Assembly (NCBI GenBank): GCA_964588535.1
Contig: CAZPQA010000005.1
Coordinates: forward strand, 5,177 to 69,176
Direction of reading: 5' to 3'
Length of the DNA: 64,000 nucleotides
Source: an uncultured Desulfobacteraceae bacterium
GTDB taxonomy: Bacteria > Desulfobacterota > DSM-4660 > Desulfatiglandales > Desulfatiglandaceae
The first letter of the stretch is position 1; the number at the start of each line of letters is the position of its first letter. The position numbers and the translations under genes are program-made. Of this stretch, positions 1-29,471 are shown piece by piece. Under the pieces are notes generated by a model, which ran no database searches, had not been told where the DNA came from, and saw only the letters and a program-made list of their open reading frames with translations.

Positions 1-739
1 TCTCTATGAAATTACATGGGGGGACAGGCCCCACATACTTCAATCTTGTCCTGCCGCCATATGTTTCGCTTAATTTATTGATCTGCCGATCAAAGCCTTT
101 TTCATTCTCTTTTTTGACCAGGAAAGCGCTGTTGGTAATCATCTGGTCGCCCATGGTATGATTTGTTTTTTGATCGGTCCATAACGCTTTGAAGCAGCCC
201 AGGATAGCTTTTTCTTCCTTTTCATTTTTCATCTCAAGGGCGTTTTTTACCATTTCGCCCAATTTAACCTGGTCCCGCTGTGTGCCGCCCCTTCTTGATT
301 TGAGTCGATCTCTTAACAGCCTGATTTCCTTGTTTTCACGAACGAGTTCGATGAACAAGGTTTCCTTGTCCGTCCACAGGGCTTTGAGACCCAGTTCGAC
401 CTTGTCTTCCACATAAGTCAAAAGCGCTTTCAATTCATCATAACGGGCCTTCAAGACCTTTTCTTTGATAACCTCAGCGTTTTCGCCGATGGTTCCGAAT
501 CTTACGGGCAGCATGGGATAATCTGCCATGGTCTCTTCCATCACTTTCTGATGGGCCATGGTATTTGTCCTGTTTACGGAATATTTGATATCGGGCGAAG
601 GACTGATAACGGCCCCTATGTCTCTGTAGCAGATGCTATAAACAGAATCTTCCCGGTCGCCGATCCCTTTTGAAGAGAAATGGCGTTCTTCATCTGCTTC
701 GATAATGCAATATAAATAGTTGCCTTCCTTTTCGGTCAT
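1..739 (-). CDS. GvpF/GvpL family gas vesicle protein (3' end truncated by window edge)
   Basis: Not in the ORF track. Manual translation from ATG 739 gives MTEKEGNYLYCIIE...LPVRFGTI...VELGLKALW...KYVGPVPPCNFIE, a paralog of 4049..4801. Confidence 0.9.
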   Translation of the reverse strand, partial: MTEKEGNYLYCIIEADEERHFSSKGIGDREDSVYSICYRDIGAVISPSPDIKYSVNRTNTMAHQKVMEETMADYPMLPVRFGTIGENAEVIKEKVLKARYDELKALLTYVEDKVELGLKALWTDKETLFIELVRENKEIRLLRDRLKSRRGGTQRDQVKLGEMVKNALEMKNEKEEKAILGCFKALWTDQKTNHTMGDQMITNSAFLVKKENEKGFDRQINKLSETYGGRTRLKYVGPVPPCNFIE

Positions 740-793: not shown

Positions 794-1834
794 CTACATG
801 GCGGCGGCTTGCTCCACGGCTTTGATGCTGATCCAATTTCTGACATCCGCCTCTTTGAAAGAACAGGCATCATTCTGGCAATAGCCCGTAAGCTTTTGAT
901 AGGATTTTGTTATGTTTTCAAACCGCTTTTGAGCTTCGGGGTCATCCGGAAACTTGTCAGGATGGTATTTCTTACTGAGACCCCAGTAGACTTCTTTGAT
1001 TTCAGCAGCCGTAGATTGTTCTCCCATGCCCATGACGTCTTTCGCGTGGTTAATTTCTCCAAAATCCACTTTTGTGATTTCCAGTGTGCGAAAGCTGTAA
1101 GGCGGAAGCGGCCCTACAATCCTGAAATTGATTTTGTCCTGGTAGTGGCGGTCGAGCGCCTCCACCTTTTTTTCCAATGCTTCCTGTTTGTCCTGGTTGA
1201 TCAGGAACGCCCCGTTCACGATCATGGCATCATCCATGATGGCGTGAGAAATGTGGTCTTCCGCGTCTTTTTTCAGGGTGTCCACAATCAGGGAAGCGCA
1301 TTCTTTTTTCCTTTTGTCGAGAGATGCCTTCACCAGTTTGCCGACGCTTAACTTGACCTCAAAAACCTTATCATCGGGTTTTGAGGCGGCTTCTTTCTTC
1401 AATTTCCTGACGGCGTCCTCTTCCCCTATTTCTTTCAGGATTGATTCAAAATCGCTCCATACGGCTGCCACGTTCAACTCGATTTTACCTTCCATCTCCC
1501 CAAGATGTTTTTCGATGGGGTCACAGGCGGTTTCAAGAAGGTTTTTGAGATCATGTTCGCTTACAATCGTCCCATACTTGACGGGGATGATGTGACGATT
1601 TTTCATGATCCTTTCGATGATGGCTTGATAGATGGCCAGATTCTGGAGAAGAAGTTCTTTTGGGAGGGCGCTGAATTGTTTAAACGCCATATCGCCGGCT
1701 ACAGCCGCAATATTCCGGTATGGAAACAGAAATACTTCCCCCTGGTCAATCCCTACGAGGTTCAGGTTCCGGTCTTTCTCCGCGCGTACAAACCCGTATA
1801 TGAATTTTCCGTTTGTCGTCATTTTTTTTACCAA
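794..1834 (-). CDS. GvpF/GvpL family protein fused to a C-terminal J-domain
   Basis: GvpF/L motifs (FIYGFV, IPVKYG, VGPLPPYSF) are followed by EIKEVYWGLSKKYHPDKFPDDPEAQKRFENITKSYQKL, a J-domain with the HPD motif. Confidence 0.9.
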   Translation of the reverse strand: MVKKMTTNGKFIYGFVRAEKDRNLNLVGIDQGEVFLFPYRNIAAVAGDMAFKQFSALPKELLLQNLAIYQAIIERIMKNRHIIPVKYGTIVSEHDLKNLLETACDPIEKHLGEMEGKIELNVAAVWSDFESILKEIGEEDAVRKLKKEAASKPDDKVFEVKLSVGKLVKASLDKRKKECASLIVDTLKKDAEDHISHAIMDDAMIVNGAFLINQDKQEALEKKVEALDRHYQDKINFRIVGPLPPYSFRTLEITKVDFGEINHAKDVMGMGEQSTAAEIKEVYWGLSKKYHPDKFPDDPEAQKRFENITKSYQKLTGYCQNDACSFKEADVRNWISIKAVEQAAAM

Positions 1835-1846
1835 ACTGGTTAGTGA

Positions 1847-3988
1847 TCAGTTGTCGGTTGTAGGTGTTAGAGATTTCTTAAAGTGCTGGTTTGAAATTTT
1901 GAAATCAGCGTAGTCTTCTTTCCCGCTCTCGATGAATTCTCGTATGGCCATCATAGCGGCTTTTCTGCAAACCGATTCTATGTCAGAGCCCATGAGACCC
2001 TCTGTAGATTTGGCCAGAGATTCGAGATCAACGTTCGGTCCCAGGGGTTTATCTCTTGTGTGGACTTTGAATATCTCAAGCCTTGCCTTCTGGTCAGGGG
2101 CAGGAAGCTCTAAGTGAAAATCAAACCTGCCGGCCCTGAGTAACGCCTGGTCGATAATGTCGAGCCGGTTGGTCGCTGCTAAAACAACGATCCCTTTCAG
2201 CTCCTCAATACCATCCAACTCAGTCAGAAACTGGCTGATGACCCTGTCGACTACGTGGGATGCGGCCTCCGAACCTCTCCTTGGCACCACACTGTCTATC
2301 TCATCGAAAAAAATGATGCAGGGAGATGCCTGCTTGGCTTTTTTAAATACCTCACGGACACCTTTCTCACTCTCACCAACCCACTTTGATAGTATTTCCG
2401 GGCCTTTCACCGAAATGAAGTTTACCTCTGATTCTGAAGCCACTGCCTTGGCAAGCAACGTCTTTCCGGTACCGGGTGGACCATAAAGGAGTATCCCTTT
2501 GGAGGGACTTGTATTGGCATGCTCGAATAATTTGGCGTATTTCAAGGGCCACTCAATGGTCTCCATTAAAACCCTCTTTACTTCAGCAAGGCCTCCCACA
2601 TCGTCCCAACCAACGTCCGGGATTTCAGTGAATACCTCCCTGATGGCAGAAGGTTCCACCTCTTTTAATGCTTCAGTGAAATCGTCCATGGTGACCTGAA
2701 GGTTCATCAAATCTTCATAGGGGATCTCCTCAAGCTCAAAGTCGATATTGGGAAAAATCTTCCTGAGGGTTGTCATGGCTGCTTCACGGGAAAGGGCCTC
2801 GAGATCGGCCCCAACAAACCCATGGGTGATCTCTGAAAGACGAGCCAGTTCCACATCTTCCGCCAGAGGCATACCCCTTGTGTGTATATTGAGGATGTCT
2901 AAGCGTCCGTTTTTGTCCGGTATGCTGATCTGAATTTCACGGTCAAAACGGCCCGGCCTTCTGAGAGCCGGATCAAGGACATTGGGAATATTGGTGGCGC
3001 CTATCACAATGACCTGTCCCCTTGAAGAAAGCCCGTCCATCAGCGCCAGAAGCTGTGCCACCACTCGCTTCTCTACCTGCTTTTCGCCACCCATCTCCTC
3101 ACGCTTCGGGGCAATGGCATCAATCTCGTCTAAGAATATGATGCTTGGCGCATGCGCGGTGGCATCATCGAATATCTTCCTTACATTGGCCTCGCTCTGG
3201 CCGTAAAACTTGTTCATGATCTCGGGGCCGCTGATCTGCGCGAAATATGCGTCCGTTTCATTGGCGACGGCCCGGGCAATCAGGGTCTTGCCGCATCCTG
3301 GAGGGCCATGTAGAAGAACGCCCTTTGGCGGATCGATGCCCAGGCGTTCAAAGATCTGGGGGTATTTCAAAGGGAGTTCTATCATTTCACGGATGCGCCT
3401 GATTTCCTTGCCAAGACCCCCGATATCCTCATAGGCTATCCTGGTCCTGACCTCCCCGGGTTCCCCCTTCGCCTGGATCTTCATGACGGTCTTGGGGTGG
3501 ATCATCACCACACCCGAAGGCTTGGTCGATACGACATTGAAGTCCTGGGTCCTGGTCCCGAAAAGCCTTGCCCTCACAATGTCCCCTTCCACCAGAGGAA
3601 GACCCTCCAACAGACTCCCGATGTAGCGGGCATCATGAGAACGCATCACGGTCAAAGGAGCAACGACAATGCTTTGAGCCGGGTTGAACTCCATCTTTTT
3701 GACGTCAACCTTTTCATCAATACCGGTCTTGGCATTATCCCGGGTGATACCGTCCAGTCGAATCAACCCTTTGCCGCGATCCTCCATATAGGCGGGAAGG
3801 ACCTTGGCAACGGTTTCCCTCTTCCCCTGGATGGCAACGACATCCCCCACTTCAACACCTATCTTCCTGAAGTCAACAGGATCCAGCCGCACAATCCCCC
3901 GACCTACGTCCTTGGACCCGGCCTCGGCGACCTTCAAGGTGAGGGGTTTAGGCTTCTTTGCCTTTTGTGTCTTCTTGACAGAAGTCAT
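1847..3988 (-). CDS. cdc48: CDC48/VCP/p97-family AAA+ ATPase
   Basis: Cdc48 N-domain ([10 protein letters not shown]) plus two AAA modules ([16 protein letters not shown]; Walker B FLDEID/FFDEID; [12 protein letters not shown]). Confidence 0.95.
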
Positions 3989-4048: not shown

Positions 4049-4801
4049 TCACCATTTCACCACAATATTCACAAAGTTAAATGGGGGCACCGGGCCGACG
4101 TATTTGAATGTAGCCCGGTCATCATATTCTTTGCCGAGATCTTCCACCAAGAAGTCAAACTCTTTCTCCCTCGTTCTGTCTATGAGGAAAGCTGCATTTA
4201 AAAACATGCCGTCCCCAAACACGTCATTTACCTTGACGTCAATGGCGCTCCGTTTGAACACCTTGACGACAGACCGGGTTTCATCAACCTTTTTGTTTTC
4301 AAGGGCATCTTTTACCGCCTTACCCAGAGTGATCTTGAGGGTATTGTCGCCTTTCCCGGATTTTTCCTGTGCCTTCTTCTTGAGCTTTCTGATCTCCTTG
4401 TTCCCTTCTCCTATCTCTTGAAAGATCCGGCTCACATCTTTCCAGACTGCCTTCAGACCCATCTCCACCTTATTGTCCATATCTCTCAGGAGGCCCTTGA
4501 ATTCCGAATGTCGTCTTCTCAGGAGGCTTCGAACCTCTTCGACGCTGGCCGCGATGGTACAGAATCTCACCGGAAGTACCGTATAATCTTTCATCACTTC
4601 TTCGATGACCTTTTCATGGGCTGTCATGTTTTCCCTATTGATCACGTACTTTGCCATGGGTGAACTGCTGATGACAGCGCTGATATCGTTGAACCCGATG
4701 GTTGAGACGATATCCCCGCGCTGACCGATACCGATCGGTCCGAAATTCCGACCTCCGTTACTTTCAATAATACAGTAAACGTATTGTCCTTCTTTAGCCA
4801 T
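4049..4801 (-). CDS. GvpF/GvpL family gas vesicle protein
   Basis: Motifs YVYCII, AHEKVIEEVM, VLPVRF and YVGPVPPFNFVNI. Confidence 0.92.
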   Translation of the reverse strand: MAKEGQYVYCIIESNGGRNFGPIGIGQRGDIVSTIGFNDISAVISSSPMAKYVINRENMTAHEKVIEEVMKDYTVLPVRFCTIAASVEEVRSLLRRRHSEFKGLLRDMDNKVEMGLKAVWKDVSRIFQEIGEGNKEIRKLKKKAQEKSGKGDNTLKITLGKAVKDALENKKVDETRSVVKVFKRSAIDVKVNDVFGDGMFLNAAFLIDRTREKEFDFLVEDLGKEYDDRATFKYVGPVPPFNFVNIVVKW

Positions 4802-4835: not shown

Positions 4836-5756
4836 TCAACATACCTGATTAATCGTATCCATTATTGCCTGTCTGACTTCGCCTTCGGGTTGCCCTTTGA
4901 ACCCGTTTGAATCAAAGTTGAGGACATCCAGGCATGCATCAACGAAATCGCTGTCATCCGCTTGGGGGGTGGAACCGGTTGTACTCAATACCTTGGCGAT
5001 CATAATGCTTGCCCGGACACTGGGCTGAAGGCTATTTTCTCTCGTATCCCTGATAGAACGTACAAGATCCACCACTCTTGCGGTCTCAGCTTCAGGTAAC
5101 CCTGATTTTTCCTCGACAATGGAAGCCTCGCTTTCCCGGTCGTAGTGCCGCAGCCTGATTGTTATCATGCGGTCTTTCAGGGCATCCTGCGCCTTGTGCA
5201 CACCCGCATATTCCTCAGGATTGCTGGTAAAGATCGCTCGAAACTCCGGCGAGACTCGCAGATAACCATCTTCCCCCCGCGCCGCCGGGAGATCTAACAT
5301 CTTTTCCTCCAATATGGGGAGGAGTACATTATTGGCTTCCGGTCTGGAACGGGTGAATTCGTCATAGATAAGCGTGTATCCATGTTTGCATGCCACGGTT
5401 ACCCGGTTGTCCACCCATTCCGGAGAGACATTTTCCTCCGATTTCAGGACCGAATGGATAAAGTTATCCACCATTTTTTTCCTCCGGTAGCCGTACTGAC
5501 CACCGATCAGGTCGGAGGTGCCGAACTCATCGTCGCCGTGGATCAATATGACAGGCCGCCCGATCTGGGCCGCCAAATACATTCCCATGGTAGTCTTCCC
5601 AGTGCCTGCCGGTCCGCTGAGGTGGATGGGGAATCCCGCGTTCATGTAGGTCGCACCCCTCCTTAAGACCCCTTTGATGTAATCGGACTGAACGAATCCG
5701 GGCTGATCCTTATCAATGATAATAGGCGTTACTTCTGAGCTTCTTTCAGTTCCCAC
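4836..5756 (-). CDS. gvpN: Gas vesicle AAA ATPase GvpN (copy 2)
   Basis: GPAGTGKTT, DNFIHSVLK, YDEFTRSRPEANNVLL and TSNPEEYAGVH are GvpN hallmarks. Confidence 0.95.
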   Translation of the reverse strand: MGTERSSEVTPIIIDKDQPGFVQSDYIKGVLRRGATYMNAGFPIHLSGPAGTGKTTMGMYLAAQIGRPVILIHGDDEFGTSDLIGGQYGYRRKKMVDNFIHSVLKSEENVSPEWVDNRVTVACKHGYTLIYDEFTRSRPEANNVLLPILEEKMLDLPAARGEDGYLRVSPEFRAIFTSNPEEYAGVHKAQDALKDRMITIRLRHYDRESEASIVEEKSGLPEAETARVVDLVRSIRDTRENSLQPSVRASIMIAKVLSTTGSTPQADDSDFVDACLDVLNFDSNGFKGQPEGEVRQAIMDTINQVC

Positions 5757-6966: not shown

Positions 6967-7353
6967 TCACCCTTTCGCTGTGACAACGCCTTTTCCCCGG
7001 CACGCGGTACAGGGGAGCTTGTTATGGGGGTCTTTCCCCTTGCCCCGACACTTGGGACAGGGCTCAAGGGGCTCCTTCACGCTGACATGGCCTTTACCCC
7101 TGCATACGGTGCAGGTCAGATTGCTTCGGGGCTTCTCCTTTCCCGTTCCCCTGCAGTAGGCACATTCAATGGCCGGGGGCTGGACCGAAACATTACCGCT
7201 GCCGCCGCAAACAGAGCACCTCGATCCCTTTGGTTTTTCCCCTTTGCCCGCGCAAAAAGCGCAATCAAGCTTATTGCTGTTGCTTGAGACCTTTATCACC
7301 TCGGGCGGTTTATCTGCGCTTTCCTTAGTGCCCGACGACCATTTCCATTCCAC
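6967..7353 (-). CDS. Stand-alone DnaJ-type zinc-finger protein
   Basis: Six CxxCxGxG repeats and no J-domain. Confidence 0.85.
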   Translation of the reverse strand: MEWKWSSGTKESADKPPEVIKVSSNSNKLDCAFCAGKGEKPKGSRCSVCGGSGNVSVQPPAIECAYCRGTGKEKPRSNLTCTVCRGKGHVSVKEPLEPCPKCRGKGKDPHNKLPCTACRGKGVVTAKG

Positions 7354-7994: not shown

Positions 7995-8912
7995 TTAACA
8001 GTGCTTGTCAACCAATTCACCGATCACTTCTTTGACCCTGTCCTGATTGGTCTTGCTTCCGATGCGGCTGGTCTCCGAGGCCAATATGTCCATACAGGTC
8101 TGTCTGAAAACCGGATCATTTTTGTCCACCGGGGACTTTCGGACCTTGAGGGTCTTGGCAATCATGACGGAGCCCCTTATGGTTGGGGCAAATTCATAGA
8201 CGTCAGAATCCCTGAGGCCCCTGACGACCTTTACGATCTTTGAGGCATCACCATTTTCCAGGCCAGATTTGGATTCGGTGATACGGATCTCTGTCTCTTC
8301 GTCAAAATGCTCGAGATCCATGGTGATCATGCGGTCTCGAAGGGCGTCCTGACTGCGGTGCACACCGGCGTATTCCTCCGGATTGCTGGTAAAGAGGGCC
8401 GTAAAGTCCGGGTCCACCCTCAGATAGTTGCTGTCGCCCTCCCGTGCCGAAGGCAGGTCTAACATTTTCTCCTGAAGCACGGAGAGGAGCACATTATTGG
8501 CCTCCGGTCTTGAGCGGGTAAACTCATCATATATGAGTGTGAACCCGTACTTACAGGCAATTGTCAGACGGTTGTCCACCCACTTTTTTCTCATATCCTC
8601 CTCGGTCTTGAGCACCGAGTGGATGAAATTATCCACCACCTTGCGTATTTTATATCCATATTCGCCGCCAACCAGGTCCGATGTGGAAAACTCCTCATCC
8701 CCGTGGATCATGACCACCGGTCTGCCGATCTGGCTGGCCACATGCATGGCCATGGTGGTCTTGCCCGTCCCGGAAATCCCCCGGAAATGGAGAGGAAAGC
8801 CCGCCGCCACATAGCCCAGGGCCCTCTCGGTAATATCTTTTACAAACGGGGTTTCAACAAAGTTGGGCAGGGAACGCGGTTCCAACACGGTCGTTATTTC
8901 ATCTATCGACAT
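7995..8912 (-). CDS. gvpN: Gas vesicle AAA ATPase GvpN (copy 1)
   Basis: FVETPFV, GISGTGKTT, YDEFTRSRPEANNVLLSVL and TSNPEEYAGVHRSQDALRDR. Confidence 0.96.
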   Translation of the reverse strand: MSIDEITTVLEPRSLPNFVETPFVKDITERALGYVAAGFPLHFRGISGTGKTTMAMHVASQIGRPVVMIHGDEEFSTSDLVGGEYGYKIRKVVDNFIHSVLKTEEDMRKKWVDNRLTIACKYGFTLIYDEFTRSRPEANNVLLSVLQEKMLDLPSAREGDSNYLRVDPDFTALFTSNPEEYAGVHRSQDALRDRMITMDLEHFDEETEIRITESKSGLENGDASKIVKVVRGLRDSDVYEFAPTIRGSVMIAKTLKVRKSPVDKNDPVFRQTCMDILASETSRIGSKTNQDRVKEVIGELVDKHC

Positions 8913-9012: not shown

Positions 9013-9366
9013 CTACTTCTTAGTAATGACTCCCCCGCCTCTACATTTGAGACAGGGGAGGTAATCACCGGCAAGGACGCCCTTGCCCTTGCAGTCTGGG
9101 CACGTCTCAATCGGTTCCTTTACTCCCATTATTCCTTTTCCACCGCATACATCACACGTCAGTCGCTGGTCGCGGTGAACGCCGGTCCCTCCGCAAAAAA
9201 TACAACGGATGGCAGGCGCAGGGACAGACACCTCTTTACGACCACCACAAACCTGGCATACAGAGACCTTGGACAAGAGTCCAAACGGATCGACTCCCTC
9301 TCCCTTGCAAAAGGCACATGTGGCGATGACCTTTCCCCCTTCTCCTTTTATTACTTCGACGCTCAT
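9013..9366 (-). CDS. Stand-alone DnaJ-type zinc-finger protein
   Basis: Six CxxCxGx(G/K) repeats; paralog of 6967..7353. Confidence 0.85.
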   Translation of the reverse strand: MSVEVIKGEGGKVIATCAFCKGEGVDPFGLLSKVSVCQVCGGRKEVSVPAPAIRCIFCGGTGVHRDQRLTCDVCGGKGIMGVKEPIETCPDCKGKGVLAGDYLPCLKCRGGGVITKK

Positions 9367-12147: not shown

Positions 12148-12351
12148 TTACGCTGTAGCAGTGAGTCCAATGGCTTCGGCATATTTCAGGAATGTCTCAA
12201 CGCCGGCCACAACCACTCTGGCCTCAACAGCGAGTAACTCGATGCCCACGAGGGAAACCCTGACCCACGCGTCCACGACCACGCCCTTGTCCAGAATTCT
12301 GTCCACCACTTCTACCAAACTTGAAGATGCTATCGCTTTTTCTACGGCCAT
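12148..12351 (-). CDS. gvpA: Gas vesicle structural protein GvpA
   Basis: [63 protein letters not shown]. Confidence 0.98.
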
Positions 12352-12426
12352 TGTAATTCTCCTTTTTAATCCGGTGTTTAAAAAATGGGTGTTTCCTTAA
12401 TGCAAATGAGCCTTCCGGTCACCGTT

Positions 12427-12630
12427 TTACGCGGTGGCGGTCAGTCCAATGGCTTCTGCATATTTCAGGAAAGTCTCGACACCGGCGACCACGACCCTGG
12501 CTTCAATGGCGACCAGCTCGATGCCCACGAGGGAAACCCTGACCCACGCGTCCACGACCACGCCCTTGTCCAGAATTCTGTCCACCACTTCTACCAAACT
12601 TGAAGATGCAATTGCTTTTTCTACGGCCAT
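12427..12630 (-). CDS. gvpA: Gas vesicle structural protein GvpA (tandem copy, 2 aa different)
   Basis: Canonical GvpA sequence; AGGAGG SD. Confidence 0.98.
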
Positions 12631-12981: not shown

Positions 12982-14814
12982 TCAGGGGGAGGAAACTCGC
13001 TCCCGCAACTGGAACTGAAACCGCCACCGATGAAGGCTTCGGGTGGATTTGCACCACAGGGCCAGGGTGCCCACTTCCGTGTAATGGGCAGCCACTTTCA
13101 CCGGAATAGAAACCCCTTTGGATTTCTTGCCGAATTTGATGACCGTATGAAGCGGCGGAAGGGGGGTGAGGGAGTCATCCACCCGCACAATGTCGCCCAC
13201 CCGGTCGCCGCTGCGATAACTGGAACTGTACAGGTAGAATCGCACCGGCTGGTTGGTCAGAACCGTGAATTTTTTTTCACCGAGTTCGTTTTGGGTTCCC
13301 TCGCTCATGCCGCGTTCCATCAGACAGAGTGCCGATTCAGGGGCATGGTTCGGGGCTTTTCCCGTTCCTTGGGCGTTTCCCAGGTATACCCCCAGATAGT
13401 AGGCCCTTGCACTGCCGCTGTTCACCTGCACCCCGTACCCTTTTCGAACCCGGCCGTAATAGGATGCCCCCAGGGCCACGGCAAGATCCAGCTCCGGATT
13501 TACCAGCACCCTTGGCGCGGTTTTTTCTGTTTCATGAAACCGGGTGCAAACCGCTGCTCTGATCCTGTCCTGGATGGAAGCGGGTTTGAGGGCCGCTCCA
13601 TTAAACATGATCAGATCAGGTGCAATTTTTTCCCTGCCCAGCCGCTGTTTGAGGTCGTCTCCATGTTGTTCCAGAAATCGGATCATGTGCCGGGTAATGG
13701 CGGGATCCTGGGCATAGGGGAGCCCGAATTCGGTGATCCCCCGGCGTGTTTTTAGAGCGACGGATTCTTCGGGGGAAACCAGGGGAAAAAATCCGTCCAG
13801 GATGACGTCTTCCACATCCGAACGATCGAGTTTCGCGGACATTGTATCGGCGATCAGTTTTCGGCCTCCGCCGATTAGGGTGATGGTCTTTTCTTCCGTC
13901 AGCTCCCCCAGGATCTCTTCTTTGGCCCGGCGGCACTGATTGCAGAGGGACTGCCGGCGATCCGTGCTCAAATGCCCTTTCCGGGCTCCCTTTAGACGGC
14001 TTTCCATGAGATGGGCCAGGGCCAGGTCCATGTTGTCTCCGCCGAGAATCAGGTGATCGCCCACGGCGATGCGTTCAAACCCGGGCTTTCCGTTTCTCTC
14101 ACAAAGGGTAATGAGGGTGAAGTCCGTGGTTCCGCCGCCCACGTCGCAGATCAGGATCAGCTCACCGGGCTTCACAAGGCGGTCCCATTCCCGGTCATGC
14201 TCATCCAGCCAACTGTAAAAGGCGGCCAGGGGTTCTTCCAGAAGGGTAATGTTGTTGATGCCGGTCCGAGATGCCGCTTCCACGGTCAGGTCCCGGGCCA
14301 CTTCGTCAAAGGAGGCGGGTACCGTGATCACCACGGCCTGGTTTTCCAGGCAATGGGCTTCTTCCCTTTTCACGCTGTGGTTCCAGGCGTTTTTGATATG
14401 GTTCAAATAGGCGGCGGTGACCGCAATGGGAGACTGCTTTTCCACCGGGTCATCCGCGGCCCACGGCAGGATTTGCGCTCGGCGATCCACTTTTTCGTGG
14501 CAGAGCCAGCTTTTGGCCGAAGCCACCATGCGCTTGGGGACTTTTACCCCCTGCTCCCGGGCGAGAATTCCGGCAAAGCCCTTTTCGTCGGTATCCCAGG
14601 GTAGTTTCCAGGCTTCTTTTTTCAGCTCGTGTTCACCGGGCACATAGAGAAACGAGGGGAGCACTTTACGCTTTGATATTTCACCCGGGCCTGTCAGTTG
14701 GGCAATGTCAAACCTTTGGATGGGGACTTTGGATGGGTCCTGATGTCCGGATAAATCAACATAGGTGACTGCGGAATTGGTTGTGCCCAGATCAATTCCG
14801 ATAATATATTTCAT
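12982..14814 (-). CDS. Atypical Hsp70-family protein, C-terminally truncated paralog of 26650..29451
   Basis: GIDLGTTNS, TVPASFD, EEPLAA, DVGGGTTD and GGDNMD motifs. Ends right after WRFQFQLR, where the paralog continues for about 320 aa. Confidence 0.88.
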   Translation of the reverse strand: MKYIIGIDLGTTNSAVTYVDLSGHQDPSKVPIQRFDIAQLTGPGEISKRKVLPSFLYVPGEHELKKEAWKLPWDTDEKGFAGILAREQGVKVPKRMVASAKSWLCHEKVDRRAQILPWAADDPVEKQSPIAVTAAYLNHIKNAWNHSVKREEAHCLENQAVVITVPASFDEVARDLTVEAASRTGINNITLLEEPLAAFYSWLDEHDREWDRLVKPGELILICDVGGGTTDFTLITLCERNGKPGFERIAVGDHLILGGDNMDLALAHLMESRLKGARKGHLSTDRRQSLCNQCRRAKEEILGELTEEKTITLIGGGRKLIADTMSAKLDRSDVEDVILDGFFPLVSPEESVALKTRRGITEFGLPYAQDPAITRHMIRFLEQHGDDLKQRLGREKIAPDLIMFNGAALKPASIQDRIRAAVCTRFHETEKTAPRVLVNPELDLAVALGASYYGRVRKGYGVQVNSGSARAYYLGVYLGNAQGTGKAPNHAPESALCLMERGMSEGTQNELGEKKFTVLTNQPVRFYLYSSSYRSGDRVGDIVRVDDSLTPLPPLHTVIKFGKKSKGVSIPVKVAAHYTEVGTLALWCKSTRSLHRWRFQFQLRERVSSP

Positions 14815-14817
14815 GAA

Positions 14818-16650
14818 TTATTCGATCTCTTTTTCTCTGACATTGAATTCAAGCTTGAACTTTTTTTCGTCCTCCCGGGAAACGCACCACAGTTCCAGGG
14901 TGCCCACCTCCGTGACCCGGGTTTCGAGGGTTACCGGGACAATGGCGCCGGTTTCGCCTTCCAGCCGGGTTTCGAGGGTCGTGATCGGTTCAATTTCTCC
15001 TTTCCAGTCTTCCGTTACCGATCCCATGACATCGCGGCGGCGGGTGTTGGATCCAAGGAAGTCAAACTTGACCGGTTCGCCCACCACCAGTCCGAATTCC
15101 TTGCCGGGCAGGTCGGCTTCGGTCCCTTCTTCCATGCCGAAAGGGGCCACGCACAGGGCTTTGATGGGGGTGGGAATACCCGGTACCGCTGGCAAAGCCG
15201 CCTCCACGCCGATGTAATACGTTTTGGCAAGGCCGCCGCGAATGCGAACCCCTTTTCCTTTTCGGGCCAGGCCATAATAGGCGGCGCCCCGGGCCACGGC
15301 CAGGTCGAAATCTCCGGTTTTGATTTCCCTGGGGGCGGTCTGGTTTTCCACGGCGGACCAGGATGAGAGGATGTCCAGCACCCGGTTCCTCAATCCTTGG
15401 GCCTTCATGACGCCACCGTTGAAAAGGACGGCGGTGGGGCAGATAAAGTCATTGCCCGTTGTTTCGGAAGGATCCCCTTGATCCAGGAATTGTGCCAGAT
15501 GATGGGTAATGGCCGGGTCCGATGTGTAGGAAAGCCCCATTTCCCTCATCCCTGTCCGGCGTTGCTCCCGGGGACGTGAATCGTGCCCGCACTCGGGGAA
15601 AAATCCGGTTTCCAGGACCGTTTTAACCTGATCTCGCGTCAATTCGGTCTTGACAGTACCGCCGATGAGCTTGCTTCCCCGGCCCAGGATGGTGATGGGA
15701 TAAGAATCGGCCGCTTCGTTGGAAAATAGATGTTCTTTGGCCCCGCGGCAGGCATGACACAATCCTCTCATCTGATAGGCATCCAGCTTTTGTCCCTTGG
15801 TGGCCAGATTTCCGGCCACGGCGTAAGCCAGGGTCAAGTCCATATTATCCCCGCCCACCAGCAGGTGCTGTCCCACCGATACCCGTTCCAGGTTTAAGTT
15901 TCCTTGTGTTTCCGTGACCTTAATCAGGCTGAGGTCTGTGGTGCCCCCGCCCACGTCCGCCACCAGTATGCGGTCGTTCACCTTGACCCTGTCCCGCCAT
16001 TTGCCCCGGGTGCCGTCAATCCAGGCATAGAATGCCGCCTGGGGTTCCTCAAGCAGTGTGGCTTTTGGAAAGCCGGCCATTTCGGCGGCCTTGACGGTCA
16101 GGTTCCGGGCCACTGCATCGAAGGAAGCGGGAACGGTCAGATAAACCTCCTGGTTTTCCAGGCGCAGTCCATCGTCTTCCCGGGCCATGTAATGGTTCCA
16201 GCTCTCCCTGATGTGTCTCAGGATAGCCGCCGAAGCTTCTACAGGGGAGAGTTTTTGCCGGTCATCGGGGCCTTCCCATGGGAGAATCGCTTTGTTTCGA
16301 TCCACGCCGGTGTGACAGAGCCAGGATTTGGCGGAGGCGATCATGCGCATGGGAATTTCAGCCCCCCGGTCCCGGGCAAAAGCCCCCACGGCCAGGGTGC
16401 TTTCCGGGTCCCATGGCAGGGCCAGTCCACCTTCCGGCACATCATGGGGACCCGGCAGCAGCAAGAAAGAGGGCAGGGTGCTTTGTTCCCCCAGAGAGCC
16501 GGATGCCACCAGTTGAGGGATGTTGAAAATTCGAATGTCAAGCTCCGTTAGATCATCATACCGGGCTTCCGTGTAGGCGACAACGCTGTTGGTGGTGCCC
16601 AGGTCGATGCCTATCACATAGATGGGATCAGCTTTGGTTTCATTTGTCAT
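14818..16650 (-). CDS. Atypical Hsp70-family protein (short type)
   Basis: GIDLGTTNS, TVPASFD, EEPQAA and DVGGGTTD motifs; ends LELWC...KLEFNVRE. Confidence 0.9.
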   Translation of the reverse strand: MTNETKADPIYVIGIDLGTTNSVVAYTEARYDDLTELDIRIFNIPQLVASGSLGEQSTLPSFLLLPGPHDVPEGGLALPWDPESTLAVGAFARDRGAEIPMRMIASAKSWLCHTGVDRNKAILPWEGPDDRQKLSPVEASAAILRHIRESWNHYMAREDDGLRLENQEVYLTVPASFDAVARNLTVKAAEMAGFPKATLLEEPQAAFYAWIDGTRGKWRDRVKVNDRILVADVGGGTTDLSLIKVTETQGNLNLERVSVGQHLLVGGDNMDLTLAYAVAGNLATKGQKLDAYQMRGLCHACRGAKEHLFSNEAADSYPITILGRGSKLIGGTVKTELTRDQVKTVLETGFFPECGHDSRPREQRRTGMREMGLSYTSDPAITHHLAQFLDQGDPSETTGNDFICPTAVLFNGGVMKAQGLRNRVLDILSSWSAVENQTAPREIKTGDFDLAVARGAAYYGLARKGKGVRIRGGLAKTYYIGVEAALPAVPGIPTPIKALCVAPFGMEEGTEADLPGKEFGLVVGEPVKFDFLGSNTRRRDVMGSVTEDWKGEIEPITTLETRLEGETGAIVPVTLETRVTEVGTLELWCVSREDEKKFKLEFNVREKEIE

Positions 16651-18408: not shown

Positions 18409-19113
18409 TTACGCCTGCCTGTGGCGGGGTTCGGAAAGGACTTCTCTCACGGGGGTAATCATGTAGGCTGCCAGTTTTTCGAATTTTTCCACGGGCCCCC
18501 GTGCGTTTAATGTTTTGAAATAGTCCTGTACTTTCTTGATGTTTTTTATTTCAATGATTTCAATATCGTCTGCAAGATAAGGGCGCACATGATGGTAGGC
18601 GCCCATGAAAAGCACCCCTTTGTTTTTGAGGGTTTCATTGATGCTTTTGGCAACGAATCTGTCTCTTTCCTCCATCAACCGATCTCCATCAAATTCATTC
18701 TGTATTTCGGAGGTATTTTTTTCCAGTGCTGAATCAGCCTGGACAAGCTGGAGTATTCGTTGCAGCTCCATTTTAAGCAGTTTAATGTTTTCGGTTTTTT
18801 TAATCGTTCCGCCCCTGTTGATTAAATCAAGGACAATTTGATAATTGCTGCTTCCCCTTTTGGCCCCTTCGCGGATGATCTTATGTCCCAGTTCATCTTC
18901 GGTCATCAGACCATCCTGGTATATTGAAAGGCCCTCGGGATCGAGTTTGTTGAAAAATTTTCTGATGTTTTCCCAAAAGACCGTCACGATTTCGTGATGT
19001 CTCTCCCACAGCGCGCGTCCACACGTTTCCCCGCTTTTCTTCTGGATGGATGCGGCTGCGCTTCCCAAATCAGATTCCTCATGAATCACAGGAACGTAAA
19101 ACAGCTTTCTCAT
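18409..19113 (-). CDS. Hypothetical protein, possibly TraB/ChaN-like fold
   Basis: Motifs YVPVIH, IYQDGL, ERDRFVAKSINETL and GVLFMGAYH. The fold is an inference. Confidence 0.55.
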   Translation of the reverse strand: MRKLFYVPVIHEESDLGSAAASIQKKSGETCGRALWERHHEIVTVFWENIRKFFNKLDPEGLSIYQDGLMTEDELGHKIIREGAKRGSSNYQIVLDLINRGGTIKKTENIKLLKMELQRILQLVQADSALEKNTSEIQNEFDGDRLMEERDRFVAKSINETLKNKGVLFMGAYHHVRPYLADDIEIIEIKNIKKVQDYFKTLNARGPVEKFEKLAAYMITPVREVLSEPRHRQA

Positions 19114-19199: not shown

Positions 19200-20300
19200 T
19201 CAACGATCGTTACCCACCGCAATTTTAATTTCCAACATCCCATTCTTATAAGACCAGGTCATCTGATCGTCCTTTGCTTCGCGGGAGAGGAGAATCTCTT
19301 TTTGATATTTCCTGTTCTTGCCTTCAGCGTTGATATTCAGGATGTCTCCCTTGATTTCAAGCTGAACATCCTTTTCATCGATCCCCGGCATTTCGGCCAC
19401 CACATTAATCTCTTCCGGTTCCTCAAAGATGTCCACGATCGGTTCACGCACCTCTTCCACCACCGGGCCTTTGGGCGTCTTTTTGATATTCCCGAAGGGT
19501 TGAACCGACGGACTGCCGTCGGCCATGGTGCGGACCCTCACACCGTAGACCCCTTTCAGGTCTTTGAGCCCTTTGATCTTGTTAAGTCCACTGAAGTCAA
19601 TTTCGCCCGATTTGGATAGCGCTTCGCCCTTTTCCGCCAGTTTTGAAGCCGTGTCGATAAGGTCGCCCAGCCCTTTAAAAAGGCCTCCAAGACCAAAATC
19701 CACATTTACCCCTGTTTTTTTCTCATCCATGTCTGTTCCCTCCTGTTTTGATTGTTTAGAACCTGTATTCTTTTTCTCCTGTTTACTTATTTCCCAAACC
19801 CCCTCTCTTTCCGTGCAGTTCAGATCGTTTGCTTCAAGAATTGCTTTCAGCCCTTTTACCAGACCGTATCCGGCCAGACTCGAAAGAACAGGGACGGCGC
19901 TCACAACGGATGTGGACAGATTTAATGATGCGCCCGCGATGGTTCCCAGGCCGGCCAGGATGCCCGCAGGCGTAAGGGTCTTCACCATATGGGCGGCAGC
20001 GGCGCTCGAAAAATCATCGGGGTTTTCCCCGATCTCATTCATGAACAGGGTGAAATGATCCCTGTCTTTTTCAGACAGTGCTCGAAATTTGGATATGCCG
20101 ATCAGTTGAATGGCTTTCAGTCGATTCAAAAGGTCCTCCGAGGGGAAGGTCTGTCCGGCTTCGATCCTCATGACCGTACTTCGAGATACGCCGAGTGTTT
20201 TTGCAAGGTCCGCCATGGACATGCTGCCGAATTTCTGGCGTAGTTCTTTGAGGACACTTCCACAGTTTTCACGGGTAACCCATTGGGGCATTTTTTTCAT
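19200..20300 (-). CDS. XRE-HTH domain fused in frame to an archaeal-type Hsp20/GvpH-like domain (internal start at 19730)
   Basis: HTH: MSMADLAKTLGVSRSTVMRIEAG. Alpha-crystallin domain: REPIVDIFEE...VVAEMPG...YKNGMLEI. AGGAGG SD precedes MDEKK. Confidence 0.8.
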   Translation of the reverse strand: MKKMPQWVTRENCGSVLKELRQKFGSMSMADLAKTLGVSRSTVMRIEAGQTFPSEDLLNRLKAIQLIGISKFRALSEKDRDHFTLFMNEIGENPDDFSSAAAAHMVKTLTPAGILAGLGTIAGASLNLSTSVVSAVPVLSSLAGYGLVKGLKAILEANDLNCTEREGVWEISKQEKKNTGSKQSKQEGTDMDEKKTGVNVDFGLGGLFKGLGDLIDTASKLAEKGEALSKSGEIDFSGLNKIKGLKDLKGVYGVRVRTMADGSPSVQPFGNIKKTPKGPVVEEVREPIVDIFEEPEEINVVAEMPGIDEKDVQLEIKGDILNINAEGKNRKYQKEILLSREAKDDQMTWSYKNGMLEIKIAVGNDR

Positions 20301-20573
20301 GGTGAGGATTCCTTCATCCTTCAGTCCGCGTTTTCGGTTGCAAGATGTTGCATGTTGGTCCAAGTAGCGTCAAAGTTAACCATTCGCGACCACGTGTCAA
20401 CATTTTTATCCGGAACCGATACGGCAGGGCGGGCAAATTTTCCCAAACGACTTTGTTTTGACATTTGCTAGCGCTTGTATGAGACTGGAAAGCTGGAAAG
20501 AAGGCGTAATGGTTTGGCGAAGAGGCCCATGGGAAAAAGTAGATGTTGGAAATAGGGTGCTGGGTATTTGGCA

Positions 20574-20830
20574 TCAATCCCCCAGGGCGTCCCTCACGGC
20601 CTTCCCTGACTGATCCATGGCAAAAGGCTTGGTAATGGTGCCGCAAAAACCGTATTCACTGAAATGGGTTATGATCGGATCATTGGAATAAGCACTGGCA
20701 ACAACGGCCTTCACATTGGCGTCGATTTCTTTTAACCTTTTTATGGCATCCCGTCTTCCCCAGCGTCTGGCATGCCAGATTTCTAATTGACTCCTCATCG
20801 TCCATGACCAGGAGCCTGGCGGTCCCCTTA
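20574..20830 (-). pseudogene. Decayed receiver domain detached from the upstream hybrid kinase
   Basis: A shifted frame reads KGTARLLVMDDEESIRNLACQTL, then jumps to DAIKRLKEIDANVKAVVASAYSNDP...KPF. The middle, including the phospho-Asp strand, is missing. Confidence 0.75.
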
Positions 20831-22879
20831 TATTAGATCCCTCTCCAGAGCCCCTGTTTTAGCGATTTCTCCTCCAGAGGCGTTAAGATAAAAGTGAAAT
20901 GATGCCCCTGCACCAAGTTCTGAATCCACTGCAATATGGCCGCCATGCTTCTTGATAATGGAATGGGCCATGGCAAGACCAAGCCCGCTCCCCTTGTCTT
21001 TGGTGGAGAAGTAGGGGTCAAATAGCTTTGGGAGGTGTTTTGTGGATATACCGATCCCCTCATCCTTGACGCACACATGGACATATTTTCCAGATGGGAG
21101 AGGTAAAGCGTCTTTTGTCCATATTATTTTGTTTTCCATCTCAATCTTGATAACCCCACCATCCGGCATTGCCTGATCCGCATTGATGATCAGATTCTGG
21201 ATAACCTGACTGATCTGCCCCACATCGATCTCCGTCGGCCAGATATCTTCCGGGATGGTGAAATTACATCTGACGTTTGACCCCTTCAACACAAAACTGC
21301 TTGACTCTCTGATCACCTCAGGCAGAGATGCGGTCTCCTTGACCAGCGAACCCCCCATGGAAAGCGTCATCAGTTGCTGGATGATACTCTTGGCCCTATG
21401 GGACGCAGTTTCAGCGTCATTCAGGGCTTCATAGGCCTCAGATGCCGGGTCCATAGCCATTTTTACAAACGAAATATTGCCCATAATGGTTGTCAGGATG
21501 TTATTGAAGTCATGGCCGAGACCGCCTGCAAGGATTCCCAGGGATTCAAGCTTTTCCACTTTAAGACGCTCTTCCTCCAGTTTATGCCTTTCTGTATTGT
21601 CATTTACCATCAGGAGTAGGCCCCCTGAGGAGAAAGGGACAAGATAAGCGTCAACTTTGACTTCCTTTCCAAAAGTTGATTCAACTACCAAATCATGACG
21701 TTTGATGGACTGTTGTTCGACTGCACTCTTTGCCTTTTCAAGAAACCCGGACTCTTCCCACGATTCAATATTGTTATAGTTTTGTTGAAGGACCTTCTCT
21801 TTTGTAGTGCCAATAATCTTTGCTAATGAATCATTTGCCTCCATACATTGCCCAGACGCATCATAAATTGATATGCCAACCGGTGATTCAGAAATGATAT
21901 TTCGATATACCTCCTGGCTCTCCCGCAGCGCCTCCTTAGCCTTTTTGAGCTCAGTAATGTCTAGGAGTTGCCCCATAGTGGCTATGGTCTTTCCCCTGTC
22001 ATCATGGATCGCCGAAACGGTTATACTCCCCCACACAATATGTCCATCTTTATGAACGTAACGTTTTTCCATAGCAAAGCCGTTGCTTTCGCCCGTCCAT
22101 AATTTTTCTACAATATCATTCCTTTGAACCACTTCGTCAGAATAAGAAATGTCTCGGATCGTCATGGAGAGCAATTCCTCTCGGGTATAACCCAGAATCT
22201 GGGACATACTACGATTGACTTCCAGATACCGACCATCTCGATCAGTAAGTACCTTGCCGAGCGCTGAATCCTCAAACATACTGCGGAACTTCTCTTCACT
22301 CTCCTTAATCGTTGCTACAGTTCGCTTGAGGTTGTCTATGTGGCTCAGCACTCCTCGAAATCGTGTGAGTTCGCCATCATCATCCTTTATGACTATGGAC
22401 TTCAATTGGCCATAAAATTGAGTGCCATCCTCTCTTGCGAGTCTTAGTTCACAACTTTCCCTGATCTTTGTTTCAAAAAGCCTTTTACGGTGTAAGTAAA
22501 AGGAGTCCTGGTCATCCCTGGTGATAAAATCGGAGAAAGGCCTGCCTATCAACAACATTCTCTCCACGCCAAGCATAGCGGCACCCGTGAGATTTCCCTC
22601 CAGAATCACTCCCTTATCACTGATGGTGAAATAACCGACCGGGGCATAGTCATAGAGCTCGGAATACTTATCCCGTGCCTCTTCCAGTTCACGTTGTGCC
22701 CGGCGGAGTTCCTCGTTCTGCATCTCCAGTTCTACCTGGTGAATCTGCAGATCCTCGACCAGAGCCTTCACGTCCTTGGGCTGCATTTTGCTGATGTATG
22801 AAGGGTTCTTATTCACGAATTCTTCAGCCTTTTTTCGCATTGTGTCAGATTGCTTTGATTTGGCTTTTTTCCCTTTCAT
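20828..22879 (-). CDS. Multi-PAS sensor histidine kinase
   Basis: ELEMQNEEL coiled coil, three PAS-like blocks, H-box GHDFNNIL, NLIINADQAM and FSTKDKGSGLGL. Confidence 0.93.
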   Translation of the reverse strand: MKGKKAKSKQSDTMRKKAEEFVNKNPSYISKMQPKDVKALVEDLQIHQVELEMQNEELRRAQRELEEARDKYSELYDYAPVGYFTISDKGVILEGNLTGAAMLGVERMLLIGRPFSDFITRDDQDSFYLHRKRLFETKIRESCELRLAREDGTQFYGQLKSIVIKDDDGELTRFRGVLSHIDNLKRTVATIKESEEKFRSMFEDSALGKVLTDRDGRYLEVNRSMSQILGYTREELLSMTIRDISYSDEVVQRNDIVEKLWTGESNGFAMEKRYVHKDGHIVWGSITVSAIHDDRGKTIATMGQLLDITELKKAKEALRESQEVYRNIISESPVGISIYDASGQCMEANDSLAKIIGTTKEKVLQQNYNNIESWEESGFLEKAKSAVEQQSIKRHDLVVESTFGKEVKVDAYLVPFSSGGLLLMVNDNTERHKLEEERLKVEKLESLGILAGGLGHDFNNILTTIMGNISFVKMAMDPASEAYEALNDAETASHRAKSIIQQLMTLSMGGSLVKETASLPEVIRESSSFVLKGSNVRCNFTIPEDIWPTEIDVGQISQVIQNLIINADQAMPDGGVIKIEMENKIIWTKDALPLPSGKYVHVCVKDEGIGISTKHLPKLFDPYFSTKDKGSGLGLAMAHSIIKKHGGHIAVDSELGAGASFHFYLNASGGEIAKTGALERDLI

Positions 22880-25623: not shown

Positions 25624-25783
25624 GGGTCTCGGCAAAAAATAAATGCGCAAGATTGCGCCGTATTTCGGTTCGTATACAAGGCGCATCCACCGGTGCATAT
25701 TAGTGGATATGTGCCGGTGGATGCAACGCAGTAGACGGACCAAAGGACAAGCCAGATTGTGTGTTTATTTTTTGCCGAGGCCC
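25624..25783. mobile_element. MITE, 160 bp, copy 1
   Basis: TIRs GGGtCTCGGCAAAAAATAA / TTATTTTTTGCCGAGgCCC, flanked by a TAA direct repeat. Homologous copy at 51367. Confidence 0.85.
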
Positions 25784-25940
25784 TAAAGTCAAGAGAAAAC
25801 TGTCCCCGGAATTCCTCTCGCTCCCCCTGATCCAGTCTGGCAACGCACAGGAGGTTGTAACGACAACCGAGTATCGACTTTTCGTTGACTTGACCATTCT
25901 AATTGACTACTATGCTTCAGTGTGGAAAGGGGGAGATTTC

Positions 25941-26174
25941 ATGGAAACCATGGGCATAAGTCAATTCAAGGCACACGCATTGAAGGTATTGGATCGAGTT
26001 GCTAAATCACAAGTGGGGATTATTGTAACAAAACGGGGCAAACCGCTTGCTCAGGTTATCCCGTACCGCAGCTCGGAAATGAAACCTGAACCCGGTAAGC
26101 TCGCGGACTATCTTGTCTTCGAAAAAGATATTGTCACCCCCCTTGGTGATGATATGTGGGATGCCTGCAAATGA
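25941..26174 (+). CDS. Phd/YefM-family antitoxin
   Basis: MGISQFKAHALKVLDRV...IIVTKRGKPLAQV; ATGA overlap with the toxin gene. Confidence 0.9.
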   Translation: METMGISQFKAHALKVLDRVAKSQVGIIVTKRGKPLAQVIPYRSSEMKPEPGKLADYLVFEKDIVTPLGDDMWDACK

Positions 26175-26569
26175 AATATCTGCTCGATACACATGCCTGG
26201 GTCTGGTGGTACATGAACCCTCAGAAATTGTCGCGTCGGGTGACGAATTTAATAGGGGATACAACCCGGTACGACGAACTCCTTCTGTCCGCAATTTCGC
26301 CCTGGGAATTCTGCAAGCTTCTTGAAAAGGGAAGGATTGCCATTTCCTGTAGTCCGGAAGACTGGCTGAATGCAGCTTTTGACCTGCCCAAGTTCAGGCT
26401 GGTTCCTCTTTCTCCTGTACTTGCTTACCGTTCGACCGTGTTACCGCAGCCTTTCCACAATGACCCCGCAGATCAGATTATCGCTGCAACAGCCCTGCAG
26501 GAAAATGCCGCCATTCTCACCAAAGACAGAAACATCCTCGAATATGAATACGTCAAGAGCCTTTGGTGA
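26171..26569 (+). CDS. vapC: VapC/PIN toxin
   Basis: Motifs YLLDTHAWVW, SAISPWE and HNDPADQIIAATA. Confidence 0.92.
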   Translation: MKYLLDTHAWVWWYMNPQKLSRRVTNLIGDTTRYDELLLSAISPWEFCKLLEKGRIAISCSPEDWLNAAFDLPKFRLVPLSPVLAYRSTVLPQPFHNDPADQIIAATALQENAAILTKDRNILEYEYVKSLW

Positions 26570-29451: not shown

Positions 29452-29471
29452 AAGCTAGTTCCGGGGGACTT

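Follow-up and report, generated by a model that had tools for sequence, protein, structure and literature searches.

Here we describe a gene, named gvpF-J, in a stretch of 64,000 nucleotides (the window) from an uncultured Desulfobacteraceae bacterium (assembly GCA_964588535.1, contig CAZPQA010000005.1, positions 5,177 to 69,176). Its product joins a GvpF/L domain, known from the assembly of gas vesicles (flotation organelles made of protein), to a C-terminal J-domain, and it belongs to a gas vesicle (gvp) cluster that in many relatives also carries a paralog of the chaperone DnaK (the cluster DnaK). Judging from the sequences, gvpF-J encodes a class C J-protein that has apparently not been described before and that likely has an Hsp70 of its own. 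This would be a system of the HscB/HscA kind, in a variant form directed at the shell of an organelle. We hold, with slightly better than even confidence, that GvpF-J and the cluster DnaK would form a dedicated J-protein/Hsp70 pair, which would act on the shell protein GvpA in an HscB/HscA-like manner.

The earlier note on this DNA had reported a single uninterrupted open reading frame (ORF) at 794-1834 with a complete GvpF/L domain and an intact J-domain. The ORF is indeed uninterrupted, on the minus strand; the plus frame is interrupted by stops. The ATG at 1822 is the likely start, as Met is found in this column in 115 of 120 aligned homologues, and the resulting 342-residue form is the database record (P0002). 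The features of the gene are as follows.

794..1822, minus strand: gvpF-J ORF, 342 amino acids (aa) from the ATG at 1822, or 346 aa if the TTG at 1834 is used.
1091..1807, minus strand: GvpL/GvpF domain (PF06386) of the GvpF branch, ending in GPLPPYSF (1091-1114), by Pfam, Foldseek and tree.
887..1039, minus strand: J-domain helices I-III, positions 4-54 of the 63 of PF00226, by Pfam and structure superposition.
956..964, minus strand: HPD tripeptide, aa 287-289 of 342, by sequence and by conservation in relatives.
818..883, minus strand: Cys-containing tail in place of helix IV, common to small stand-alone J-proteins, by alignment and model.

The GvpF/L domain is complete: PF06386 matches aa 10-248 (346-aa numbering, E-value 1.7e-48) over positions 2-243 of the 245-position model. 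The idea of a J-domain had been staked beforehand on a profile match at aa ~262-320, and PF00226 is found at aa 266-316 (346-aa numbering, E-value 5.2e-12, 46.1 bits against a cutoff of 27.8). As for its being intact, this holds for helices I-III and for the HPD, and fails for helix IV, which is replaced by a Y-C-x4-C-S-F-x3-D-V tail. PF06386 and PF00226 are the only matches of the protein. It lacks the G/F region, the zinc finger and the DnaJ C-terminal domains, being thus neither class A nor class B, and stays far below the DnaJ equivalog cutoffs; the assignment to class C is borne out by this architecture. In the AlphaFold2 model (pLDDT 89.4, from a 63-sequence alignment), the GvpF part matches the structures 6L5D (Foldseek E-value 7e-16, TM-score 0.78 on the target) and 4QSG, the J helices I-III superpose on known J-domains at 1.1-1.3 Å over 53 residues (2CTW: 1.1 Å), and the tail forms a strand and a short helix instead of the canonical helix IV. 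Among the 14 matched solved sequences, no structure contains both domains together.

A homology search returned 204 proteins, of which 120 were listed and aligned. Both domains, the combination that the earlier note had proposed to search for, are carried by 118 of these 120. In addition, contigs from other sequencing runs (X1 record 5 and X5 record 19) span the domain junction with zero differences, where either run may be a source of the same DNA. Since the junction is spanned by these contigs and the relatives share both domains, the fusion is not an assembly artefact. The HPD is present in 119/120 of the listed relatives, the exception being apparently frameshifted. In a profile search of representatives at 50% identity, 145 of the best 150 have both domains, and 143 of the 145 keep the HPD (one of the two exceptions reads QPD, the other is an apparent frameshift). 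Over the full length of the fusion, the six columns of highest conservation include H, P and D. By this conservation in diverse representatives the HPD of the fusion is under strong selection, and the fusion is an old family. The source names include Desulfobacterales, Syntrophales, Desulfuromonadales, Methanosarcinaceae and Methanocellales. An Atlas query with the homologue P0041 gave 13 clusters automatically named DnaJ plus GvpL/GvpF, and Chloroflexota, Pseudomonadota and Omnitrophota are the commonest phyla in the three clusters shown. Closer to our organism, sampled genomes of the phylum carry the fusion in 14 of 401 cases and those of the class in 18 of 209; an order-wide search matched one of 123 genomes and added no genome, and a single-protein scan of genome contigs gave one true relative and three J-only matches. 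The nearest titled relative, at 87% identity, comes from a Desulfobacteraceae metagenome-assembled genome. The GvpF/L plus DnaJ pair is already visible in automated annotation, and the architecture is therefore on record, unnamed.

Where the J module came from can be suggested by comparison. The C-terminal third of the fusion aligns end to end with 14 small stand-alone J-proteins of 99-128 aa, which share with it the helix I extension, the absent helix IV and a YC..Y.SF..EDV tail, and all 14 of which keep the HPD. Their scores are 61-72 bits, compared with 37-48 bits for the DnaJ-like proteins of this genome. These proteins (~105 aa) are located outside gvp clusters, have a Trp-rich C-terminal segment absent from the fusion, and weakly resemble the Shewanella AtcJ (NF050028). 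The five that were scanned fall far below every NCBIfam cutoff, that of AtcJ included, and receive no NCBIfam name; gvpF-J itself is not AtcJ, with 22.2 bits on NF050028 against a cutoff of 150. This ~105-aa family with a Trp-rich end (L277-L290, e.g., L281:2010-2327) is widespread and unnamed, and it is the likely donor of the J module. The simplest history would be that a GvpF duplicate captured a small J gene once.

One may ask whether the captured J-domain is only a passive passenger, a pseudo-J without Hsp70 function. Such a reading could appeal to the missing helix IV, the eroded basic surface described below and the QPD in one of the 145 representatives. It has to face an HPD that is one of the best-conserved features over 145 clusters less than 50% identical to one another, and a helix-IV-less form that a free-standing J family shares while retaining its HPD throughout. 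We regard it as extremely improbable.

To place the GvpF part, 124 GvpF/L domains were put into a quick tree, which includes neither experimentally studied GvpF nor Serratia sequences. The 24 fusions form one clade (SH-aLRT, the Shimodaira-Hasegawa-like approximate likelihood ratio test, 82) inside the branch of the GvpF copies that precede gvpG (SH-aLRT 99), apart from the GvpL after gvpK and from the J-less GvpF2/F3-like copies after cdc48 elsewhere. Of the 40 columns conserved in the pre-gvpG GvpF, the fusion keeps 26; on the NCBIfam profile of cyanobacterial GvpF it scores 82.5 and does not reach the cutoff of 350. GvpF is the paralog reported to bind GvpA in Halobacterium (PMC7688916, PMC9501494; papers are cited here by PubMed Central number) and was proposed as a transient chaperone of GvpA2 for the B. 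megaterium operon (PMC11445434). With the GvpF of Microcystis (4QSG) and Anabaena (6L5D), and of Halobacterium and Bacillus, the fusion shares fold, branch and cluster. It differs in having ~95 extra residues (J-domain and tail) and in being an extra copy beside two ordinary GvpF:

2..739, minus strand: gvpF paralog without J-domain, upstream of gvpG, ending 17 bases past the window, by Pfam.
4049..4801, minus strand: gvpF paralog without J-domain, by Pfam.

Both end seven residues after GPVPP(F/C)NF, in agreement with the GP.PP.NF stop claimed for them, and cdc48 lies between the fusion and the upstream one (4049-4801). The position after cdc48 also raised the candidate of a J-bearing GvpF2 orthologue. 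The cluster does resemble the Serratia 39006 operon gvrA-gvpH-gvpZ-gvpF2-gvpF3 in its order of Hsp20-like, cdc48 and GvpF-family genes, and the J-less clusters follow the Serratia order as quoted in PMC4982088. However, the gene after cdc48 in these J-less clusters has no J-domain and falls in another GvpF/L branch, with no DnaK in view, so by this tree of sequences from outside Serratia the fusion is not an F2 orthologue.

We then consider the Hsp70 side. The earlier note had inferred that the fusion delivers GvpA to an Hsp70, without naming it, an interpretation that is partly supported; the candidate partner is a DnaK paralog encoded by the cluster. In this genome the relevant genes are outside the window:

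G000:C239, minus strand: kinase, regulator and the first 451 aa of the cluster DnaK (dnaK at 1333-2), the C-terminus being on C214.

The DnaK paralog comes after gvpK, gvpL and a long gvpJ, usually with the kinase and the regulator between. The fusion and the cluster dnaK are on one contig and strand in 11/11 relatives whose contig reaches the cluster end (ten of the same family and one of the same order, including the complete same-genus genome G527), and within ~4 kilobases (kb) of each other in 7/7 further genomes of another order. Among the metagenome loci, the cluster DnaK is visible in 6/80, most loci being too short to reach that far. Altogether, 31 of the 43 fusion-bearing genomes examined have a cluster-type DnaK (G523 was scored from a matching locus; dnaK is on a separate contig in G140, G182, G212, G379, G467, G475 and G513, as it is here), compared with none of the 17 genomes whose gvp cluster shows no fusion (in G036 that cluster is cut by a contig end, and those of G229 and G384 look decayed). 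A pattern search for the cluster-type DnaK, which misses G182 and G270 by design, matched 23 of the 401 genomes, comprising 13 with non-DnaK sequence, two with ordinary-type DnaK (Q404, V436) and eight with the cluster type. Across the 401 genomes, every cluster DnaK seen came with a fusion-type cluster or a part of one; G078 has it with half of its gvp cluster assembled.

Several features of these loci were observed in passing. C239 (L197) looks like a strain mosaic, in which shallow contigs match its ends and deep ones diverge over the gene, and G379 holds two cluster-type dnaK copies (L186, L194). In most relatives the cluster dnaK is flanked by genes for a long GvpJ-like protein (a GvpA domain and ~300 unassigned residues) and for a 319-aa protein whose end is Hsp20-like (L008:14939-16048, 19990-20949). 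Divergent fusions, two of them of 306 aa, occur in G123 (L126:12164), G245 (L128) and G291 (L131), together with a J-less-type cluster and without a cluster DnaK; these keep 4/5 of the basic J residues discussed below.

In a careful tree of 52 rows, from which L192, the long-branch L191 and the fragment L156 were left out, the 34 ordinary DnaKs group together with 100/100 support, none of the 16 cluster DnaKs being among them, and the subgroup of cluster DnaKs holding the copy of this genome has a support of 100/99. When aligned to E. coli DnaK and HscA, the cluster DnaKs are invariant at D8, T11, K70, P143, R151, R167, E171, T173, D194, T199 and L391. Since these catalytic and allosteric residues are all retained, we predict that the cluster DnaK hydrolyses ATP and responds to J-domains. 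The pocket positions tell another story. M404 is E, Q or S in 17/17 cluster DnaKs versus L in 32/34 housekeeping ones, and V436 is M in 16/17 (as M433 of HscA) versus V in 34/34. Moreover, T428 is N in 14/17, P470 is A in 12/16, and L392 is V or I in 16/17. Q404 alone is not diagnostic, because the two ordinary-type DnaKs mentioned above also carry it. In DnaKs position 404 is M or L, and the M at 436 makes the HscA pocket shallow and proline-selective (PMC8215388). From these substitutions, the substrate pocket of the cluster DnaK is reshaped. Where a housekeeping DnaK has M or L at 404, V at 436 and a grpE/dnaJ context, the cluster DnaKs have E/Q/S404, M436 and a gvp context. They score 687-744 bits on the housekeeping profile TIGR02350 and fail its cutoff of 822.55, pass PRK00290, and fail both HscA cutoffs (TIGR01991: 543-567 bits against 708.55 in 3/3). 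Overall, they are closer to DnaK (49-53%) than to HscA (40-45%). They are thus like HscA in V436M, P470A and a short or missing C-terminal tail, but unlike it in being a DnaK offshoot, with an arch that is acidic or polar instead of Met/Phe and with E264/E267 mostly kept.

This HscA-like pocket permits a different choice of client. HscA grips the LPPVK of IscU, and by analogy the cluster DnaK might grip the G-P-x-P-P loop of the GvpF carrier itself, so that GvpF releases GvpA. The V436M (and P470A) of a pocket described as proline-tailored (PMC8215388) would suit such a loop, GvpA has no proline, and LPP occurs in 21/24 fusion rows, the other three being unmatched by the pattern. However, G-P-x-P-P is family-wide, being also found in J-less clusters (as WPP) and in DnaK-less fusions, the arch Phe of HscA (A429F) is absent, and the arch is acidic. 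We also tried the LPP motif as a DnaK-linked feature and rejected it, as it does not discriminate. The GvpF carrier as client seems distinctly unlikely to us.

The contact surfaces of the two partners are also informative. The J residues R22, K26, R27, K48 and K51 face E206, D211, E217 and D477 of DnaK (PMC8215388). At these five DnaJ positions (E. coli numbering) gvpF-J has K, W, G, E and T. Position 26 is W in 18/37 fusions, and E217 is H in 8/15 cluster DnaKs versus E in 33/34 ordinary ones; i.e., the partner surfaces shift together. Fusions from DnaK-bearing clusters have a mean of 1.9 basic contact residues (n=37, six of them metagenome loci), compared with 2.9 for those without DnaK (n=11), with wide overlap. 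The lower count fits co-adaptation of the J-domain and the DnaK, an observation that is suggestive, no more.

Based on the above analyses, the favoured pair could work in four steps. First, the GvpF domain would bind unassembled GvpA or a GvpA-family paralog, by analogy with the GvpF-GvpA binding in Halobacterium and Bacillus. Second, the J-domain would dock on the ATP-bound cluster DnaK, whose contacts R167, L391 and T173 are kept, and would trigger hydrolysis through its HPD, as HPD-bearing J-domains do with Hsp70 (PMC8215388). Third, the DnaK would hold part of the client in its pocket, which with M404E and V436M would be shallower and more polar, and so suited to the Val/Ala-rich GvpA rather than to the Leu-rich motifs of the housekeeping DnaK; the gvpA copy at 12148-12351 encodes zero proline, 15 Val and 11 Ala. 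Fourth, nucleotide exchange would free the client for insertion into the growing shell, with the housekeeping GrpE as the probable exchanger, since no grpE was seen in any cluster. Hsp20 may serve as holdase and Cdc48 as extractor, as their neighbourhood suggests. In general the arrangement is like HscB-HscA-IscU, in which a J-domain is joined to a client-recognition module and an Hsp70 paralog is encoded in the cluster of the client. Unlike HscB, the fusion has its J-domain at the C-terminus; unlike the known triad, it is found in a gvp context and not in an isc operon with IscU, its client is likely an organelle shell protein, and the pair is optional (31/43).

On the other hand, a number of observations weigh against this pair. 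The J-domain retains one of the five basic DnaK-contact residues and is without helix IV, and the contrast in basic residues, sharp with five DnaK-less genomes, became weaker with 11, which represent only about four independent lineages. In the GvpF part, 14 of the 40 conserved pre-gvpG columns are not kept, and the two J-less GvpF copies of the cluster may be the real GvpA binders. On the DnaK side, monophyly of the cluster DnaKs is weak (73/12; 88/63 without G270), in a tree from which Gram-positive and archaeal DnaKs are absent. No public contig bridges C5 to C239, so in this genome the dnaK contig is assigned to the cluster by synteny and not by a physical join. Over dnaK, deep public contigs diverge from C239 by up to ~5%, and low-depth ones match. 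The co-occurrence is not a statistical test either, because the genomes are related and inherit the cluster as a unit. Well-studied clusters form vesicles with published gene lists that contain neither a J-protein nor a DnaK (PMC9501494, Table 1), and the portion of that paper covered here has no mention of DnaK, Hsp or heat shock. Finally, the pair is not obligatory, as a cluster-type DnaK is missing from 12 of the 43 fusion genomes (seven from a single family, among them the complete G638; G291, G123 and G245; and the incomplete G133, 79%, and G493, 71%). In such clusters the fusion would borrow the housekeeping DnaK.

These DnaK-less genomes lead to the further thought that the J-domain could serve mainly the housekeeping DnaK, or other Gvp proteins such as GvpG, J and K as clients, the cluster DnaK being an optional extra copy. 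Two ordinary DnaKs are encoded elsewhere in this genome, and GvpF-family proteins contact several Gvp proteins (PMC11445434, PMC9501494), both of which agree with it. Against this, the signature of the paralog is fixed, in 401 genomes the paralog goes unseen outside fusion-type clusters, whole or partial, and the J surface in the window has lost most of the charges that complement the housekeeping DnaK. We consider this reading quite improbable, and return to the dedicated pair acting on GvpA.

The cluster around the fusion in the window runs gvpA, gvpA, a 211-aa gene, a gvpC-like repeat gene, gvpN twice, gvpF, cdc48, gvpF-J and gvpF, where gvpC-like is our label for a repeat protein without family match. 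Its main members, beside those given above, are listed below.

1847..3988, minus strand: cdc48-family AAA+ ATPase, directly upstream of the fusion with a 24-base gap (TIGR01243, 961 bits against a cutoff of 803), likely the GvpZ of Serratia nomenclature.
4836..5756, minus strand: gvpN, second copy (TIGR02640, over cutoff).
7995..8912, minus strand: gvpN (TIGR02640, over cutoff).
12148..12630, minus strand: two gvpA genes of 67 aa each (PF00741), the likely client.
G000:C5:1-5176, minus strand, outside the window: continuation of the cluster with gvpG, O, J, K and L, by gene order.

With gvpA, G, J, K and N present, the fusion is a member of a gvp cluster here. The same context was found in metagenome loci, the best 80 of 548 returned: all 80 encode the fusion with its HPD, 70 have a named gvp neighbour, nine have other cluster genes only, and one has none in view. 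The cdc48 is directly upstream of the fusion in 36/80, and an Hsp20-like gene is in view in 35/80.

The frequent company of cdc48 and Hsp20 supports what we see as the main rival to a dedicated assembly pair, namely quality control or disassembly. By analogy with auxilin, GvpF-J would spot misassembled, collapsed or surplus GvpA shell, and DnaK, Cdc48 and Hsp20 would pull it apart and recycle the subunits. Auxilin targets Hsp70 to a protein cage in clathrin uncoating, and the fusion is like it in joining a lattice-protein-binding module to a C-terminal J-domain; unlike gvpF-J, auxilin is eukaryotic. That the studied clusters assemble vesicles without a J or Hsp70 gene, that gvpH and gvpZ of Serratia are dispensable in the native host (PMC10344784) and that vesicle degradation has been named unexplored (PMC10903477) would all be in line with this rival. 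But the genes are co-directional with short gaps in an assembly cluster, the branch of the GvpF domain is the one for which binding to unassembled GvpA is reported, and Hsp20-cdc48 do not need the fusion, because J-less clusters have them too. Taken together, a disassembly role appears unlikely. There is also a broader possibility, which we put forward tentatively: widespread gvp clusters of anaerobic bacteria and some archaea may hold a private ATP-driven remodelling line (Hsp20, Cdc48, GvpF-J, and a DnaK with a pocket convergent on that of HscA), in which the J-domain and DnaK would be co-adapted to exclude the housekeeping system and DnaK would unload GvpA from the GvpF carrier or strip shells. 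If this is true, no Hsp70 system dedicated to making or recycling a protein organelle of prokaryotes would, as far as we have found, have been described before.

Some neighbouring genes deserve mention on their own. Between the two gvpN are an AbrB-like gene, a 107-aa gene, a zinc-finger gene and a family-less 394-aa gene, and the same gvpN duplication is seen in L009, L023 and L045. A 234-aa gene without Pfam family (18409-19113) and an Hsp20 behind a helix-turn-helix (HTH) domain (19200-20363) lie 6-7 kb upstream of gvpA, and in relatives their homologues come directly after the fusion and before cdc48. DnaJ-type CXXCXGXG zinc-finger repeat proteins without a J-domain recur in this cluster and its relatives (6967-7353, 9013-9366; L001:2545-3693), and might act for the J/Hsp70 pair as separate modules that bind its substrates. 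ArsA/Get3-family ATPases, single or in tandem, are found in both fusion and J-less gvp clusters (L037:4032-6080, L047:18315-20450, L077:6689-7624; one starts on G000:C214); Get3-like proteins are chaperones for hydrophobic helices. A volactin-family actin homologue (PF25216, E-value 2e-95) is within a gas vesicle cluster at L060:12327-13373, with a relative in L039. At 25761-26569 on the plus strand, a small gene pair resembles, by sequence alone, a Phd/PIN-type toxin-antitoxin module.

On its minus strand, at 12982-16650 and 26650-30275, the window also has a gene with DUF2760 and three genes for atypical Hsp70-like proteins, one of which has 933 aa and a DUF3731 part, the other two 610 aa each. 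The gvpA-adjacent 610-aa copy resembles the 933-aa one minus its DUF3731 part. The trio of DUF2760, Hsp70 and Hsp70-DUF3731 is directly upstream of gvpA in the complete same-genus genome (L219), the only other genome in which such genes adjoin gvpA, and was not seen there in more distant clusters. These Hsp70s (12982-16650, 26650-29451) were considered as J partners and rejected, as they give weak partial HSP70 matches and are absent upstream of gvpA in the other fusion clusters.

Among the hits listed from searches in the text of open full-text papers, there is no description of the fusion or of the cluster DnaK. The main survey of bacterial J-proteins, Barriot et al. 2020, may list the architecture. 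PMC10410713 names auxilin/Hsc70, and the part of its text and the one supplement covered here contain neither 'Gvp' nor 'gas vesicle'; likewise, the covered text and 12 of the 22 supplements of PMC10344784 contain no DnaK, DnaJ or hsp.

A 2024 review counts two matters among the open questions, namely what keeps the very hydrophobic GvpA in solution and directs it into the shell, and whether there is active degradation of vesicles (PMC10903477). The chaperone role of GvpF has so far been hypothesized on the strength of interaction assays (PMC11445434, PMC7688916). A natural GvpF-J with a matched DnaK makes the question of hand-over by GvpF testable. The finding also concerns acoustic reporter engineering. 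Of 15 mined clusters, ten did not yield detectable vesicles in E. coli, and it was suggested that genes from outside the annotated operons may be required (PMC10344784); in fusion-type clusters dnaK is at the far end, behind the kinase-regulator pair, and could easily be lost when such a cluster is cloned. Overall, if our reading is true, it would add to the known chaperone systems a dedicated J/Hsp70 pair for the gas vesicle, with an HscA-like pocket reached independently.

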